Of a DNA stretch of 64,000 nt, positions 17,464 through 23,763 are shown in pieces (position 1 is the stretch's first letter; each line of letters begins with the position of its first letter). The notes beneath the pieces are model-generated. The model ran no database searches, was not told where the DNA came from, and saw only the letters and a program-made list of their open reading frames with translations. The stretch is from assembly GCA_965601515.1 (NCBI GenBank), contig CBFCWN010000001.1, positions 64,069 through 128,068 of the forward strand, written 5' to 3'. A program made the position numbers and the translations under genes. The stretch is from an uncultured Myxococcales bacterium (GTDB lineage: Bacteria; Myxococcota_A; Polyangia; Polyangiales; Houyiibacteriaceae).

Positions 17464-18983
17464 TGAAGTCGCGACTCTCTCTCGCCGCCGTGCTGCTCGT
17501 CGGCCTCGCCGGCGCCTGCTCGAAGGAAGCTCCTCCACCCAAGACGGCGGCTACGACGGGAGCGAAAGCCGAGCCGAAGCTCGAGCCCCCTCCTGCTCCG
17601 TCCGCCCCGAAGGCGCTGGTTCTTCCCACCGTGGGGATCGCGGAGCTCGATAACGGTCTTCAGGTGAACACGATCGTCACCGACCAGCTCCCCGTGATTT
17701 ACGCGACGCTCGTCGTCCGGAGCGGAGCCGAGTCCGACCCGGAGACGCTCCCGGGGCTATCGGGCATCGTCGCGCAGATGCTCAAGGAAGGTACGACGAA
17801 GCGCAAGGCCGCCGAAATCGCCGAGGAGATCGAGTTCCTCGGAGCCGACCTCTGGGCGAGCTCCGACGAAGAGAACACCTACATCGGAGTGCGCGCCCTC
17901 GCGGAGCACTTCGACGTGGCGATGTCCATCCTCGCCGAGGTCGCGGGCCAGCCCGCGTTCAACAACGCCGAGCTCGCCAAGCTGAAGCGCCGAGAGCTCG
18001 ATCGGCTTGCCTTGTCCGAACGTGAGCCTCGCTACATCGCTCGCCGTCAGTTCTACCGCTCGCTCTACGGGGACCACCCCTACGGCACGGTCGATACGAC
18101 GCCGCAGGCGGTCAAGCGGGTGCGTCGACAAGACCTCGTCCAATGGCACCGGAAGAACTTCGTCGGCAAGAACGCGTTCTTGGTGGTCGCGGGTGAAATC
18201 GACCCGGAGACAGTGAACGCGGTCGCAGGGCGCACGCTTGGCTCGCTCAAGCCCGGCCAACGCGCGGTCCCCCAGTACACGGATCCTCCGCGTCCAAAGG
18301 ATCGAAATATCCTCGTGGTCGACCGACCCGGCTCCGTTCAGTCCGTGATCTACATGGGCAACCTCGCCATCCGGCGGGCGAATCGCGAGTGGATTCCACT
18401 CATCGTCGCGAACCAGGTGCTTGGCGGCTCCGCCGCGTCGCGACTGTTCATGGACCTCCGCGAGAAGCGCAGCCTCACCTACGGCGCCTACAGCGCAATC
18501 GCCGAGCGCGTCGACATCGGGCCGTTCGTCGCCTACTCGTCGGTTCGAACCGAGGTCACCCCCGAGGCCATCGGCGCGTTCTTCGACCACCTCGAGCTGA
18601 TCAATCGCGAGCCCCCGAGCGAGGAAGAATTGGTCAATGCGCGTCGCTACCTGAGCGACTCGTTTCCACTTCAGGTGGACACGCCCGGCAAGCTCGCCGA
18701 TTTGGTGATGGAGCTTCGGACCTACGGTCTTCCAGACGACTACTGGACGAATTACAGGAACTACATCCGCCAGACGAGCGCCTCCGAAGCGCAATACGTC
18801 GCTCGAACGTACATTCGACCGGCAGAAGCATTGGTCGTGATTGTGGGCCAGGCCGCAGATTTTGCCCCGGCGCTTGCCAAGTACGGACCGGTCACGGTCG
18901 TGTCACCGGACGGCGAGATCAAGGCCCAGTTCCCCGACGAGCGAACCGGGCCTACGGGTGCACAGCGAGGGCCCATCCAGTAA
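17463..18983 (+). CDS. M16 family peptidase-like lipoprotein, non-catalytic-type subunit
   Basis: TAATG overlap with the upstream gene. MKSRLSLAAVLLVGLAGAC is a lipobox. The position equivalent to HxxEH reads GLSGIVAQMLKEG, so the motif is lost. Confidence 0.8.
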   Translation: MKSRLSLAAVLLVGLAGACSKEAPPPKTAATTGAKAEPKLEPPPAPSAPKALVLPTVGIAELDNGLQVNTIVTDQLPVIYATLVVRSGAESDPETLPGLSGIVAQMLKEGTTKRKAAEIAEEIEFLGADLWASSDEENTYIGVRALAEHFDVAMSILAEVAGQPAFNNAELAKLKRRELDRLALSEREPRYIARRQFYRSLYGDHPYGTVDTTPQAVKRVRRQDLVQWHRKNFVGKNAFLVVAGEIDPETVNAVAGRTLGSLKPGQRAVPQYTDPPRPKDRNILVVDRPGSVQSVIYMGNLAIRRANREWIPLIVANQVLGGSAASRLFMDLREKRSLTYGAYSAIAERVDIGPFVAYSSVRTEVTPEAIGAFFDHLELINREPPSEEELVNARRYLSDSFPLQVDTPGKLADLVMELRTYGLPDDYWTNYRNYIRQTSASEAQYVARTYIRPAEALVVIVGQAADFAPALAKYGPVTVVSPDGEIKAQFPDERTGPTGAQRGPIQ

Positions 18984-18992
18984 AGTCGAAAC

Positions 18993-20825
18993 ATGTGCGG
19001 AATCGTCGGCTACGTCGGTAGCGAGGAAGCTGCTCCGATCTTGGTCGATGGTCTCCGGCGTCTCGAGTACCGGGGCTACGACTCGGCCGGAGTGGCGGTT
19101 CACGAAGAAGGCGGCATCGAGATCGTTCGAGCCGTTGGCAAGCTCCGAAACCTCGAGACGGCGCTTCACGATCGGAAGCTCGCGGGGAACGTCGGCATCG
19201 GCCACACGCGGTGGGCGACACACGGGCGACCCTCCGAGGTCAACGCCCATCCGCACGTCGCCGGCCCCATCGCGGTCGTCCACAACGGCATCATCGAAAA
19301 CCACCTTCAGCTCCGGTCGGAGCTCGAAGCGGACGGCGTCGCGATCGTGAGCGACACGGACACCGAAATCGTCTCCCACCTCATCCATCAGGAAACCGAG
19401 GGCGGGCACGATCTGCTCTCCGCCATTCGACGCGCGCTCGCACGCGTCGAAGGCGCCTACGCGATCGCCGTGCTTTCCGAAACCGAAGCCGATCGAATCA
19501 TCGTCGCCAAGAACTCTTCGCCGCTGGTGCTGGGGGTGGCCGACGGCGCCAGCTACTGCGCAAGCGACATTCCGGCACTACTCCCGTACACCAACGAGAT
19601 GTTGTTTCTCGAGGACGGTGAGATTGCGGTCCTCGACTCGGCCGGATTCGAGATCACGACGCTTGCGGGCGACCCCGTGACGCGCAGCGCGCAGACGATC
19701 TCGTGGTCTCCAGTGATGGCCGAGAAGGCAGGCTTCAAACACTTCATGCTCAAAGAGATCTTCGAGCAGCCACGTGCGCTCGAGGACACGCTGCGCGGGC
19801 GCCTCGACCGCGAGCACGCGGACGTCGTCACCGCCGAGATTGGGCTTACCGAACAGGACGCGGCGGACACGAAGCGAGTCATCCTGCTCGCGTGCGGAAC
19901 GAGCCACCACGCGACCATCGCGGGACGCTACTGGATCGAAGAGCTCGCGGGCGTGCCCGCGATCACAGAGCTTGCCAGCGAGTTTCGTGGCCGCGACGCG
20001 GTCGTCGGCGAGGGTGACCTCGTCATCGCGGTGAGCCAGTCCGGCGAAACCATCGACACCCTGATGGCCGCCAAGGAGGCCAAGCAGGCCGGAGCCAAAG
20101 TGCTCGCGATCGCGAACGTGATTGGGAGCGCGATTCCACGAATGGCCGACGCGAGCTTCTACACGCACGCGGGTCCGGAAATCGGCGTCGCGTCGACGAA
20201 GTGCTTCATGGCGCAGCTTGCCAACCTGTTCATGTTCAGCCTTTGGCTCGCACGCCGCCGCGGCACGTTGAACGAAGGAGAGGCGGGCGAGCTCATCGAA
20301 GGCCTGGCTCGGGTTCCGCACCTCATCGACGAGCGCCTCGAGAGCAGCCACAAGGCGATCGCCGACCTGGCGACGAAGTACTCCGCCGCACAGGACGTGC
20401 TGTTCCTCGGTCGCGGCCTCAGCTTTCCCATGGCGCTCGAAGGCGCGCTCAAGCTGAAGGAGATCTCCTATGTGCACGCCGAAGGCTATGCCGCCGGCGA
20501 GATGAAGCACGGGCCCATCGCCCTGCTCGATACCGACGTACCGGTCATCGTGCTCGCGCCCCAGGACCGTCACTACGAACGAGTCTGCAGCAATCTCCAG
20601 GAGGCACGCGCTCGCGACGCCCAGATCATCGGCATCACCACGGACGGCGACGGTCAGGCGCAAAGCCTATGCCACGACTTCGTCGAGGTCGCTCCCACGC
20701 TCGAGGCGCTCACCCCGTTCCTCACGGTCGTCCCGCTTCAGCTCTACGCCTACTGCGTTGCGGACCACAAGGGCACCGACGTCGACCAGCCTCGAAATCT
20801 TGCGAAGACCGTCACGGTCGAGTGA
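18993..20825 (+). CDS. glmS: glutamine--fructose-6-phosphate aminotransferase
   Basis: MCGIVGYVG N-terminal nucleophile, two SIS domains, C-terminal PRNLAKTVTVE. Confidence 0.97.
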   Translation: MCGIVGYVGSEEAAPILVDGLRRLEYRGYDSAGVAVHEEGGIEIVRAVGKLRNLETALHDRKLAGNVGIGHTRWATHGRPSEVNAHPHVAGPIAVVHNGIIENHLQLRSELEADGVAIVSDTDTEIVSHLIHQETEGGHDLLSAIRRALARVEGAYAIAVLSETEADRIIVAKNSSPLVLGVADGASYCASDIPALLPYTNEMLFLEDGEIAVLDSAGFEITTLAGDPVTRSAQTISWSPVMAEKAGFKHFMLKEIFEQPRALEDTLRGRLDREHADVVTAEIGLTEQDAADTKRVILLACGTSHHATIAGRYWIEELAGVPAITELASEFRGRDAVVGEGDLVIAVSQSGETIDTLMAAKEAKQAGAKVLAIANVIGSAIPRMADASFYTHAGPEIGVASTKCFMAQLANLFMFSLWLARRRGTLNEGEAGELIEGLARVPHLIDERLESSHKAIADLATKYSAAQDVLFLGRGLSFPMALEGALKLKEISYVHAEGYAAGEMKHGPIALLDTDVPVIVLAPQDRHYERVCSNLQEARARDAQIIGITTDGDGQAQSLCHDFVEVAPTLEALTPFLTVVPLQLYAYCVADHKGTDVDQPRNLAKTVTVE

Positions 20826-21922: not shown

Positions 21923-21977
21923 CCGTCAGCTAGCCGCCAAATCCGCACTTCTCCTTCATCTCCTCGCAAGTCCCCGT

Positions 21978-22013
21978 GACGGCTCACTTCCTCCGTGGTG
22001 AGCCGTCTTTTTT
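21978..22013 (+). terminator. intrinsic terminator of the DUF465 gene
   Basis: GACGGCTCAC-(10-nt loop)-GTGAGCCGTC followed by TTTTTT. Confidence 0.75.
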
Positions 22014-22054
22014 CATGCGCTCGGGTACCAAACCCGGGGCGAGGCGCGTTGGTT

Positions 22055-22083
22055 AAACAAAACGGGCCACCCAAAGGTGACCC
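22055..22083 (-). terminator. intrinsic terminator on the minus strand
   Basis: The minus strand reads GGGTCACC-TTTG-GGTGGCCC (8-bp stem with one G-U pair) followed by GTTTTGTTT. Confidence 0.65.
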
Positions 22084-22234
22084 ATTTCGACCGAAGGAAT
22101 CGATCTACACTGAACTAAGCTAGGAAAATAAGTTAAGCTGGAGTTACAAGCAGTTAGTGAGTTAAGGACGACCCATCGCCACGCGGATGCCGGGCAAGCT
22201 GGAAAGTGCGCGGCGTGGGTCTTAAGCAAGTGCC
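22056..22234 (-). ncRNA. candidate ~180-nt small RNA bounded by a sigma-54 promoter and an intrinsic terminator (family unknown)
   Basis: No ORF of coding quality; stop codons in all six frames. A 13-bp 5' stem spans 22221-22170. An ~85-nt stretch is ~40% GC, with four UAACU repeats and CU-rich motifs. The terminator follows. See the first finding. Confidence 0.45.
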
Positions 22235-22244
22235 CCCGATTCAA

Positions 22245-22260
22245 TGCAATCGGGGTGCCA
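22245..22260 (-). promoter_or_regulatory. sigma-54 (-24/-12) promoter core
   Basis: The minus strand reads T-TGGCAC-CCCGA-TTGCA-T, an exact TGGCAC-N5-TTGCA match. Predicted +1 is near 22234. Confidence 0.55.
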
Positions 22261-22440
22261 ACTACAAGCCCGCCGAAACAGGGCTGTTTTCCAGGCTACA
22301 GGCCTATCGGTAGGACATTTCTGTCATACGTCCGCACGGCATGTCGTGGTCGGCTCCAATCCCCGGGCGGACGCCGGCGACGTTCAAGATACCTACATAA
22401 ACCTACCCGGGCGAGTTGAAAGCTCGGTCGAGTCACGCGT

Positions 22441-23763
22441 ATGATCGGAGCACCGGGCGAGCCGGGTTCAATGCCGACGTGCAACACGTGTAATGCGAAG
22501 GTCGTGAGGACGGACGCTTTTTGCGGTGCCTGCGGGGAGCCCGTGCCGGGCGCCAAGCCCGTCGTGCCGATCCGTGCGTCGTCCCCGGCAAACCTGACGG
22601 CCGAGCGCGAGCACGTGAGCGGCGCCTTTTCGCCGCCCGCCCCCACGGGGAACGCGGCGCAGGCGGCCGTCATCGTCGCGATTTCGGACCCCGAGCCACC
22701 GGACTCAGAGATCCGCGAACCCAATGAGACCGCGGTGCGCGAGCGCGAACGGAGCGAACCGGCGCCCGTCGTCCCGCTTCAGCGGCGCAAGGACGAGAGC
22801 ACGTCGATCGAGCAGCCCGCGGCGCCTGAGGAGCCCCTGCCCCTCGTCGGCACGATGGGTCGCGAGGCCGAGGCTCCGGCGGCCGAGACTCCAGCGGCGG
22901 AGACTCCAGCGGCGGAGACTCCGGCGCCGGAGCGCGGCGACACGAGCCTGCCGAACATTCCAGTTCGACCCGCAGCGCCTCCAATCTTGGCCTCGGACTT
23001 GCTCCGGGAGCAGATGCGTCCGTCGAGCCCGGGGGAGACGGAGCTCCGAATCGGTACGCTGGCGCTCTGTGCCATCGCAGGCGGGGTCGCTGTTTGGGCG
23101 GGTGGGACCCATCCGCTGACCTTGGTGTCGCTCGCTCTTTGTTTGTGCATGGCGATTCTCGCCGCCACGCCGATGTCGTATCGAGTTCGAGCCATCGGGC
23201 TCGTGCTCCTCGGCAGCGCGGCCACCGGCGTCTCGCTCTGGCAGCAAGAGCTCTCCGGAATTGCTCCGGAAGGCGCGATTCTCGCGATCGCAACCATCCT
23301 CTTGAGCGGCGGCCTTTTGTTCCGCGCGTACTACCGAGGAGCGATGTGGTCCCGCGCGGCCGTCGCCGTCGGCGTCGCGGCTCTCGTCGCGTGGTTCATC
23401 GTATCCGGCGGTCACCAGAGCCTGGTCGCGCTCGAGGCAGCCTGGCACTCCTGGGCGCCCGCGATCACGCAGATGGCGCTCGGCCTGCTGGCCCTTCTCT
23501 CGCTGATGGCCTTCATGGACAGCAGCACGCGCGGGGGCACCCACGTATGGGCTGCTGCTCTCCTATTCTTCTACGCGGTCCACATTGGACTGCTCATCGG
23601 AACGCAGCGCTGGCCGCTCGCACCCGGCGAAACGATGATTGAAGGCAGCACCATCGCCGCGCTTCTCGCAGGCGCGGTCGGCACCATCGTCGCCGGCGTG
23701 GCGCTCGCCCAAGTATTCGTGGTCCTCTACCAGAAGAAGACGTCTAGACGACGCTCCACCTAG
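22441..23763 (+). CDS. zinc-ribbon domain protein with Pro/Glu-rich linker and polytopic membrane C-terminal domain
   Basis: N-terminal CNTCNAKVVRTDAFCGACGEP (CxxC...CxxC), an ETPAA x3 linker, then about 7-8 hydrophobic segments. Confidence 0.7.
   Translation: MIGAPGEPGSMPTCNTCNAKVVRTDAFCGACGEPVPGAKPVVPIRASSPANLTAEREHVSGAFSPPAPTGNAAQAAVIVAISDPEPPDSEIREPNETAVRERERSEPAPVVPLQRRKDESTSIEQPAAPEEPLPLVGTMGREAEAPAAETPAAETPAAETPAPERGDTSLPNIPVRPAAPPILASDLLREQMRPSSPGETELRIGTLALCAIAGGVAVWAGGTHPLTLVSLALCLCMAILAATPMSYRVRAIGLVLLGSAATGVSLWQQELSGIAPEGAILAIATILLSGGLLFRAYYRGAMWSRAAVAVGVAALVAWFIVSGGHQSLVALEAAWHSWAPAITQMALGLLALLSLMAFMDSSTRGGTHVWAAALLFFYAVHIGLLIGTQRWPLAPGETMIEGSTIAALLAGAVGTIVAGVALAQVFVVLYQKKTSRRRST
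22885..22929 (+). repeat. 15-nt in-frame tandem repeat x3 (encodes ETPAA repeats)
   Basis: gagactccagcggcg, gagactccagcggcg, gagactccggcgccg. Confidence 0.85.

Follow-up and report, generated by a model that had tools for sequence, protein, structure and literature searches.

Small regulatory RNAs (sRNAs) driven by sigma-54 are well established. The Qrr RNAs of Vibrio, activated by LuxO, are about 100 nt long, depend on Hfq, adjoin luxO and feed back on the mRNA of this neighbouring regulator, and CrcZ, which together with CrcY belongs to the CbrB/sigma-54 system of Pseudomonas, is about 400 nt long, binds Hfq/Crc through the A-rich motif AANAANAA and adjoins cbrB. All of pxr, qrr1, glmY and crcZ adjoin their activators. 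To our knowledge, very few regulatory RNAs are known from the Myxococcota, and Pxr alone has been studied in depth. Here we analyse a 64-kb stretch of DNA from an uncultured Myxococcales bacterium (the window), in which the minus strand of a gene-free gap carries what is probably an independent gene for a non-coding regulatory RNA of ~180 nt, driven by sigma-54 and an activator and acting in trans by base pairing. The original prediction, read from the letters of the window, had proposed a sigma-54-dependent sRNA at this place and is supported by the comparative evidence; the RNA appears to represent a new, well-defined family of sigma-54-type sRNA that matches no family of Rfam 15.

The nearest system by phylum and architecture is Pxr of Myxococcus xanthus, with its activator PxrR/Nla19. 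Pxr has a predicted sigma-54 promoter, an upstream enhancer-binding region and three hairpins, of which the 5' stem-loops are highly conserved (PMC5684412), and the window RNA resembles it in its sigma-54-type promoter with an upstream region, its three predicted hairpins, its conserved 5' part and its more variable remainder. However, Pxr measures ~111 nt and is reportedly confined to the Cystobacterineae (PMC5568312), whereas the RNA family of the window measures 156-208 nt and belongs to an SG8-38-like clade of Polyangiales; pxr follows its activator gene immediately, whereas no activator gene accompanies the window RNA in the window or in the fetched flanks; and the synteny differs. The two are set apart by size, neighbours and distribution. 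GlmY and GlmZ of Enterobacteriaceae, sRNAs of ~150-200 nt with sigma-54 promoters, have upstream activator sites in which TGTC/GACA half-sites are combined, as well as a bend site (PMC3045617). The window RNA has a similar length, a sigma-54-type promoter, a putative activator site with such half-sites and a possible bend site, and glmS, to which GlmY and GlmZ are tied, lies 1.2 kb from it within the window. Yet because the GlrR consensus at the glmY and glmZ promoters is TGTC-N10-GACA (PMC3045617), present in three copies, the upstream site of the window, a single GACA-N4-TGTC with a GACAT half-site, differs from it, and the window RNA has no Rfam GlmY/GlmZ match even at E <= 10.

The likeness to Qrr, as predicted from sequence, lies in sigma-54, the terminal hairpin and a long invariant single-stranded block, and the feedback of Qrr on a neighbour mRNA resembles the tentative pairing of the window RNA with the mRNA of its Zn-ribbon neighbour. 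The window RNA differs from Qrr in size, in its neighbours and in having no Rfam match, and the Hfq on which Qrr depends is reportedly missing from myxobacteria (PMC5568312). With CrcZ and CrcY it shares a sigma-54-type promoter and several copies of a short motif, but the repeat is GCUU(R) rather than the A-rich motif of the far longer CrcZ, no cbrB stands beside it and, again, Rfam gives no match. Unlike pxr, qrr1, glmY and crcZ, the window RNA gene has no activator gene adjoining it.

Promoter and upstream region

The minus strand reads TTGGCAC-CCCGA-TTGCAT at 22261-22244, a sigma-54-type promoter (22244..22261) with the -24 box TGGCAC (22260-22255), a 5-nt spacer and the -12 box TTGCA (22249-22245). 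The exact pattern TGGCACN5TTGCA occurs once in the 64-kb window, both strands considered, is still the sole match with one mismatch allowed, and appears in 0/100 dinucleotide-preserving shuffles, so that the claim of an exact -24/-12 core, rare by chance, is borne out. The boxes are kept as TGGCA(C/T)-N5-TTGC(A/T) in all 14 distinct related loci that were ascertained through a protein (9/9 reached by LolA; 5/5 distinct loci reached by the Zn-ribbon protein, Myxococcales bacterium SG8_38 included), and of the eight conserved LolA-reached loci seven have the exact TGGCAC-N5-TTGCA and one has TGGCAT. Sequence differs between loci, by contrast, in the 5-nt spacer and from -11 to -1. A promoter scan scored no sigma-70-type promoter on the RNA strand; a candidate for an overlapping sigma-70 promoter, TGACA(A/G)-N15-TGCAAT, had been seen by eye in some loci and was rejected, its spacer being too short and the pattern being absent from the window.

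Alignment of 26 upstream regions reveals three further conserved elements on the same strand. The proximal element ATGACAGAAATGTCCTA (22311..22327), with the palindrome GACA-N4-TGTC, is nearly invariant as ATGACAGAAATGTCCTAC / ATGACAGAAATGTC, is centred ~85 bp before +1 and is unique in the window even with three mismatches allowed; it is a putative binding site for an enhancer-binding protein. The distal element GACC(A/G)CGAC(A)AT (22341..22351), ~25 bp above this palindrome and at about -108 to -118 from +1, may be an enhancer half-site. Between the putative enhancer and the promoter an A-tract/T-tract palindrome, GGAAAACAGCCCTGTTTCGG (22273..22292, minus strand), could act as a bend or IHF-type site; AAAAC-N4-5-GTTTT is retained there in most loci, while its centre changes. 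This layout of palindrome and A/T-tract is as expected for the usual arrangement of an enhancer-dependent sigma-54 promoter.

Predicted transcript and fold

Going by promoter geometry, the transcript would start near 22234, 12 nt past the C of the -12 GC, and span 22055..22234 on the minus strand (~180 nt). The family profile matches the window at 22233-22054 (nhmmer, E = 1e-47). Along the minus strand the gap presents a conserved upstream block, the promoter, ~11 variable bases, a 5' leader GCACUUGCUUAAG, the first stem-loop (SL1), a linker and the terminator hairpin. A 185-nt transcript has a minimum free energy of -64.4 kcal/mol, against -47.6 +/- 3.9 for shuffles (z = -4.3, 0/200 as good), and the computed fold contains both helices originally described, the 5' stem and the terminator; the coordinates given for these and for the promoter all match the direct minus-strand reading.

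SL1 (22170..22221, minus strand) has a 13-bp stem with one bulge and a 23-nt loop, its arms being GACCCACGCCGCGC (22221-22208) and GCGTGGCG-AT-GGGTC (22184-22170); fold, RNAalifold and pairing count agree on it, with 100% of cells paired. Within the loop the 16-nt block CAGCUUGCCCGGCAUC (22186..22201) is identical in 26/26 aligned copies and in four further distinct copies, with a mean predicted unpaired probability of 0.73, and is a candidate seed or protein-binding site. The linker (22088..22169, minus strand; 82 nt) is AT-/pyrimidine-rich, and alignment and motif counts pick out in it UCCUUAAC, GCUUAAC, CCUAGCUU and GAUUCYUUCG; the motifs UCCUUAAC, GCUUAAC, CCUAGCUU and GAUUCUUUCG are mostly unpaired in the predicted ensemble, and there are 5.1 GCTT per RNA where 1.1 would be expected. 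In relatives the linker may carry a variable hairpin (SL2), whose stems differ by lineage (CCGUAA/UUACGG, CGAAA/UUUCG, UUCGU/ACGAA) and which is absent in six copies. The middle segment had been put at ~85 nt with ~40% GC and comes to 86 nt at 39.5% GC. The four TAACT, two AGCTTA and the TCCTT/TTCCT stretches listed for it are indeed present, but UAACU, offered as a seed for target prediction, is largely specific to this genome and not conserved; the repeats that run through the family are GCUU(R)/CUUAA. The CU-rich stretches, which had been proposed to pair with Shine-Dalgarno sequences, may do so, but the strongest functional candidate of the RNA is the invariant SL1 loop, with the pyrimidine-rich linker as a probable second working part.

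The intrinsic terminator (22055..22087, minus strand) consists of an AAAUGGGUCACC / GGUGGCCCGUUU stem, a UUUG loop and a U-rich tail, and 99% of its cells are paired in fold and alignment. In the DNA it reads GGGTCACC-TTTG-GGTGGCCC (22083-22064), then GTTTTGTTT (22063-22055); after the AAAUGGGUCACC-UUUG-GGUGGCCCGUUU hairpin the tail is UUGUUU and ends at 22055. The terminator claimed ~180 nt downstream of the promoter is thus confirmed, since on the transcribed strand a U-tract follows the GC-rich hairpin, and a strong 12-bp hairpin with a U-tract is found in all copies. A simple terminator scan leaves the hairpin unlisted in the window and lists the orthologous one in locus L003, probably because in the window the U-tract is partly taken up by a longer stem of A/U pairs. 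Two side observations concern this hairpin. Family-wide, AUGGGUC recurs in the 3' arm of SL1 and in the 5' arm of the terminator, a hint that the RNA may have arisen with an internal duplication, and at L007:3440-3480 the terminator 5' arm is tandemly duplicated (GGAATGGGTCAC GGGAATGGGTCACC).

Relatives and conservation

LolA, encoded in the flank of the RNA gene, has hundreds of close metagenome relatives labelled Polyangiales, Myxococcales or Deltaproteobacteria bacterium, and a genome scan with this protein yielded ten related loci. Eight of these show conservation over the entire intergenic region (nhmmer E = 1e-32 to 1e-53; LolA identity 69-81%), the ninth (L009, LolA 62%) has TGGCAC-N5-TTGCT with the loop motif TGCCCGGCAT 38 nt further on, and in the tenth (L010, LolA 56% identity) the element was not found. 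A metagenome scan with a promoter-plus-loop pattern added at least ~20 further copies, among many chance matches. Because this pattern presupposes the promoter, loci were also fetched through the Zn-ribbon protein, and all five distinct loci reached in this way carry both RNA and promoter, among them that of SG8_38 (GCA_001303415.1) and one on a 2-Mb contig. In all, at least 30 distinct full-length copies and two cut by contig ends come from metagenome-assembled genomes (MAGs) and metagenomes of the SG8-38-like Polyangiales clade, and among the matches listed the putative RNA gene is found only in this uncultured marine/sediment myxobacterial branch. Marine and estuarine sediments commonly harbour SG8-38-like Polyangiales.

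Conservation covers the promoter, the enhancer-like element, the helices, the terminator and the synteny; no ORF (open reading frame) is conserved. When 26 distinct full-length copies of 156-208 nt are aligned, the conserved stretch opens at the predicted +1 and closes just past the U-tract, and the 5' domain has a mean identity of 91%. As the original prediction anticipated, promoter, 5' stem and terminator are kept in every related locus found. There is one RNA copy per locus, and a profile search found no paralogs in the window or the loci. RNAalifold on the family alignment recovers SL1 and the terminator, and 99.4% of the 701 cells of these two helices are standard pairs, compared with 32-49% when the partners are slid by 1-3 columns. 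One SL1 pair switches between C-G, U-G and U-A, and L138 adds a change from A-U to G-C at the SL1 bulge.

Three distant positional relatives (L009:2525-2830, L107:3846-4130 and L076:1354-1770), whose LolA is ~60% identical, occupy the same site upstream of DUF465-lolA and have a sigma-54-type promoter followed by a stem of different sequence around the same GCU(U)GCCCGGCAUG loop. Their RNAs are longer and rich in CGCUUGG/GCUUGCUU repeats, and in L009 and L107 a lipoprotein-like ORF comes next on the same strand. They give no nhmmer match to the family, and because their scores with a covariance model of the 5' domain, 7-9 bits, fall below chance matches, their membership rests on synteny, promoter and loop motif. 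For L076 and L107 promoter and loop motif were part of the search pattern; L009 was found independently of it, which makes coincidence very unlikely there.

Rfam 15 gives no match at gathering threshold in the whole window, and for the minus strand between 21850 and 22500 there is none even at E <= 10. The RNA falls outside every Rfam 15 family, GlmY, GlmZ, Qrr and CrcZ included if Rfam has models of them. In the literature we found neither a description of such an sRNA in Polyangiales or SG8-38 nor any regulatory RNA described for uncultured SG8-38-like Polyangiales. As to coding potential, the largest ORF over the region has 63 codons with a TTG start (22244-22053) and no Pfam match, and no ATG ORF of at least 8 codons is common to the family, in which non-triplet indels in the middle break the frames. 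The predicted RNA would thereby have the anatomy of a trans-acting sRNA, with its own promoter and terminator and no conserved ORF.

Locus and neighbouring genes

In all related loci the RNA has the identical setting, with the Zn-ribbon gene pointing leftward, the RNA rightward, DUF465 leftward and lolA rightward; the wider order is CAP-domain gene, Zn-ribbon gene (opposite strand), RNA, DUF465 (opposite strand) and lolA. The last of these lies downstream of the RNA on the same strand in every locus, ~510 nt away, with the convergent gene and its terminator between. The gap itself had been measured as 518 bp, up to a Zn-ribbon start at 22441. It is gene-free as claimed, with 4-11 stops in each of its six frames as had also been noted, but the longest-ORF rule mis-starts the Zn-ribbon gene, whose true start is the conserved MPTC methionine at 22471 (plus strand), and therefore the gap measures 548 bp. 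A genome GC of ~66% had been assumed; the window has 63.6%. The same gap holds the Zn-ribbon gene's own conserved promoter, TTGAA(A/G)-N17/18-TATGAT (plus strand), and its 5' untranslated region (5'UTR) is short, ~25-30 nt, with a CCGG...CCGG mini-hairpin (window 22416-22500, plus strand).

The Zn-ribbon/multi-transmembrane protein itself (22471-23763, plus strand) belongs to a small family, with at least 175 matches among 8000 candidates scored. Among 120 matches listed, the source names are all 'hypothetical protein' and no precomputed Pfam domain is given, and the organism labels, where given among the matches listed, are all Polyangiales, Myxococcales or Deltaproteobacteria MAGs, SG8_38 included. 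These are lineages of the same kind as the RNA carriers.

Proposed mechanism, candidate target and alternative explanations

From promoter, fold and conservation we infer transcription itself, its dependence on sigma-54 and an activator, a trans-acting mode and a target. RNA polymerase with sigma-54 would bind the TGGCAC-N5-TTGCA promoter and be activated from the GACA-N4-TGTC palindrome ~85 bp upstream by an enhancer-binding protein whose gene lies in another part of the genome, the A/T-tract between palindrome and promoter helping the DNA to loop, and the intrinsic terminator would end transcription. The RNA would then pair in trans with mRNAs, mainly through the 16-nt apical loop of SL1 and probably with additional contact from the unpaired pyrimidine-rich linker, such that the ribosome-binding or start regions of the target mRNAs are occluded.

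Which mRNAs might be bound was approached locally by comparing, in each locus, its own RNA with positions -40..+25 of five neighbouring genes. The Zn-ribbon mRNA is the sole target candidate visible in the available sequence. Against it the SL1 loop has a mean z of -1.9, compared with -0.1 to +0.4 for the other four genes; the loop/Zn-ribbon pairing falls below the 5th percentile in 12/24 loci, compared with 1/71 for the four neighbouring control genes, and shuffled loops match this result in 0/40 cases. In the window the tentative target site ACCGGGCGAGCCGGG (22452..22466, plus strand), at -19..-5 from the start at 22471 in the Zn-ribbon 5'UTR, is complementary to the SL1 loop: the part of the loop containing UUGCCCGGC can form 10 contiguous pairs with ACCGGGCGAG at -19..-10 and three more downstream, a duplex of -27.2 kcal/mol that ranks in the top 0.6% of 1968 real 65-nt segments. 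We regard the Zn-ribbon mRNA as a lead, not a finding, more apt to fail than to hold.

Other candidates were rejected. DUF465, lolA and the CAP-domain gene give no signal as local targets. For control of glmS in the manner of GlmY/GlmZ, loop, leader and linker compared with glmS -25..+30 do no better than shuffled targets or genomic background (median percentile 0.60); a match of GUAGC..CGAUUC with GAAUCG..GCUAC, 6+5 bp, picked by eye, is not significant, and unrestricted duplex folding against glmS is meaningless. In glmS (18960-18995, plus strand) and its orthologs TA(A/G)AGT stands 6-7 nt before the ATG with no Shine-Dalgarno sequence in 12/13 loci (L009 differs), which suggests that the glmS mRNA is leaderless, a further difference from the GlmY/GlmZ system.

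Several points weigh against a sigma-54-driven, base-pairing sRNA. Neither the 64-kb window nor the ~30 fetched flanks contain rpoN or an enhancer-binding-protein gene, as judged by GAFTGA or RpoN-box motifs, and the presence of sigma-54 in this lineage is assumed from general knowledge of the Myxococcota. A covariation check had been proposed: the changes seen in the helices do preserve pairing, but strict covariation is sparse, with a double compensatory change in only 2/27 pairs, and 14/27 stem pairs never vary. Since most stem positions are invariant, the data agree with the predicted structure but do not prove it, and the invariance of the stem could also reflect recognition by a protein. 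The related loci are phylogenetically linked, and the locus counts are not independent. As for the Zn-ribbon mRNA, the pairing register differs by locus, lying in the 5'UTR in some and at the start codon in others, the pairing is weak in the two most divergent loci, and an equivalent description of it is that a GCCCGGC motif recurs on one DNA strand.

The gene and its promoter might be as proposed and the RNA still serve as a protein sponge or decoy, in which GCUU(R)/CUUAA motifs and the invariant stem-loop capture and titrate an RNA-binding protein, in the way that CrcZ acts on Hfq/Crc and GlmY on RapZ. We know of no RNA-binding protein that recognises GCUUR, which counts against such a function, as do the absence of a regular hairpin-loop array of the motifs, the lack of a candidate protein gene linked to the locus and the complementarity of the loop to the neighbouring Zn-ribbon mRNA, which favours base pairing. 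The excess of GCTT, the longer RNAs of the three distant relatives, packed with CGCUUGG/GCUUGCUU repeats, and a stem sequence more invariant than pairing needs speak for it; moreover, a survey of sequenced myxobacterial genomes reports no Hfq homolog (PMC5568312), and another partner is therefore to be expected. On balance we hold a sponge to be rather unlikely. Still less likely is a combination of the two functions, in which the RNA would stand at the centre of an envelope circuit particular to this lineage, in a phylum without Hfq, its loop silencing the co-inherited, clade-restricted Zn-ribbon neighbour while its GCUU(R) repeats titrate an RNA-binding protein; if true, this would amount to a new motif class of sponge RNA.

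That lolA follows on the same strand in every locus, and that the DUF465 terminator has no U-tract on the RNA strand, would suit a cis-acting leader or attenuator, with a conditional terminator, read-through antisense over DUF465 into lolA and SL1 as sensor. In the distant relatives read-through would instead reach the downstream lipoprotein gene, as the same-strand ORF of L009 and L107 suggests, and since AUGGGUC occurs both in the 3' arm of SL1 and in the 5' arm of the terminator, a partner swap is conceivable. However, such a leader, in either form, is improbable, because a convergent gene with its terminator separates the RNA from lolA over ~510 nt and because the 12-bp terminator hairpin with its U-tract is strong in every copy; in addition, the alternative pairing is lost where the terminator arm changes (L003, L093), and no Rfam riboswitch matches. 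We give very little credence to the notion that the gap holds no RNA gene and is conserved as DNA, as operators and promoters of the flanking genes, with the sigma-54 match and the hairpins incidental. The Zn-ribbon promoter does lie in the same gap, and TGCCCGGCA is a near-palindrome and possible protein site, with a related GCCCGGC upstream on the same strand, but the ~180 bp of continuous conservation are bounded exactly by promoter and hairpin-plus-U-tract, stem changes preserve pairing, the conservation is strand-asymmetric with a U-tract on one strand only, and the -24/-12 boxes stay constant on either side of a spacer that varies. That the transcript encodes a very small protein is scarcely credible. 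The 63-codon TTG ORF and, in many copies, a 4-codon ATG-GGT-CGT-CCT-TAA at the SL1 3' arm could be its coding sequence, but the former has no Pfam match, the latter loses its ATG in L027, L046 and L057, and both the missing family-shared ATG ORF and the non-triplet indels described above oppose any such product.

Significance

A regulatory sRNA of sigma-54 type is not a new principle and not conceptually surprising; its use lies in annotation and in the RNA biology of uncultured Myxococcota. The ~30 sequences, with promoter, putative enhancer, structure and invariant loop, form a ready family that could enter Rfam and serve to annotate MAGs. They also offer a handle on a putative sigma-54 regulon among envelope genes (glmS, lolA, a glycosyltransferase and secA).

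The 3'UTR of the DUF465 gene

The plus strand of the gap shows features of its own. The DUF465 3'UTR (21923-22013) is C/U-rich, with CUCCUUCAUCUCCUC, and ends in a terminator hairpin (21978-22007) with the loop CUUCCUCC. The sole sub-threshold Rfam matches in the gap are to CcsR1 and ar14, sRNAs with the CCUCCUCCC motif. This 3'UTR could give rise to a 3'UTR-derived anti-Shine-Dalgarno sRNA; motifs of the CUCC/CCUC type recur in it in 20/27 related loci.

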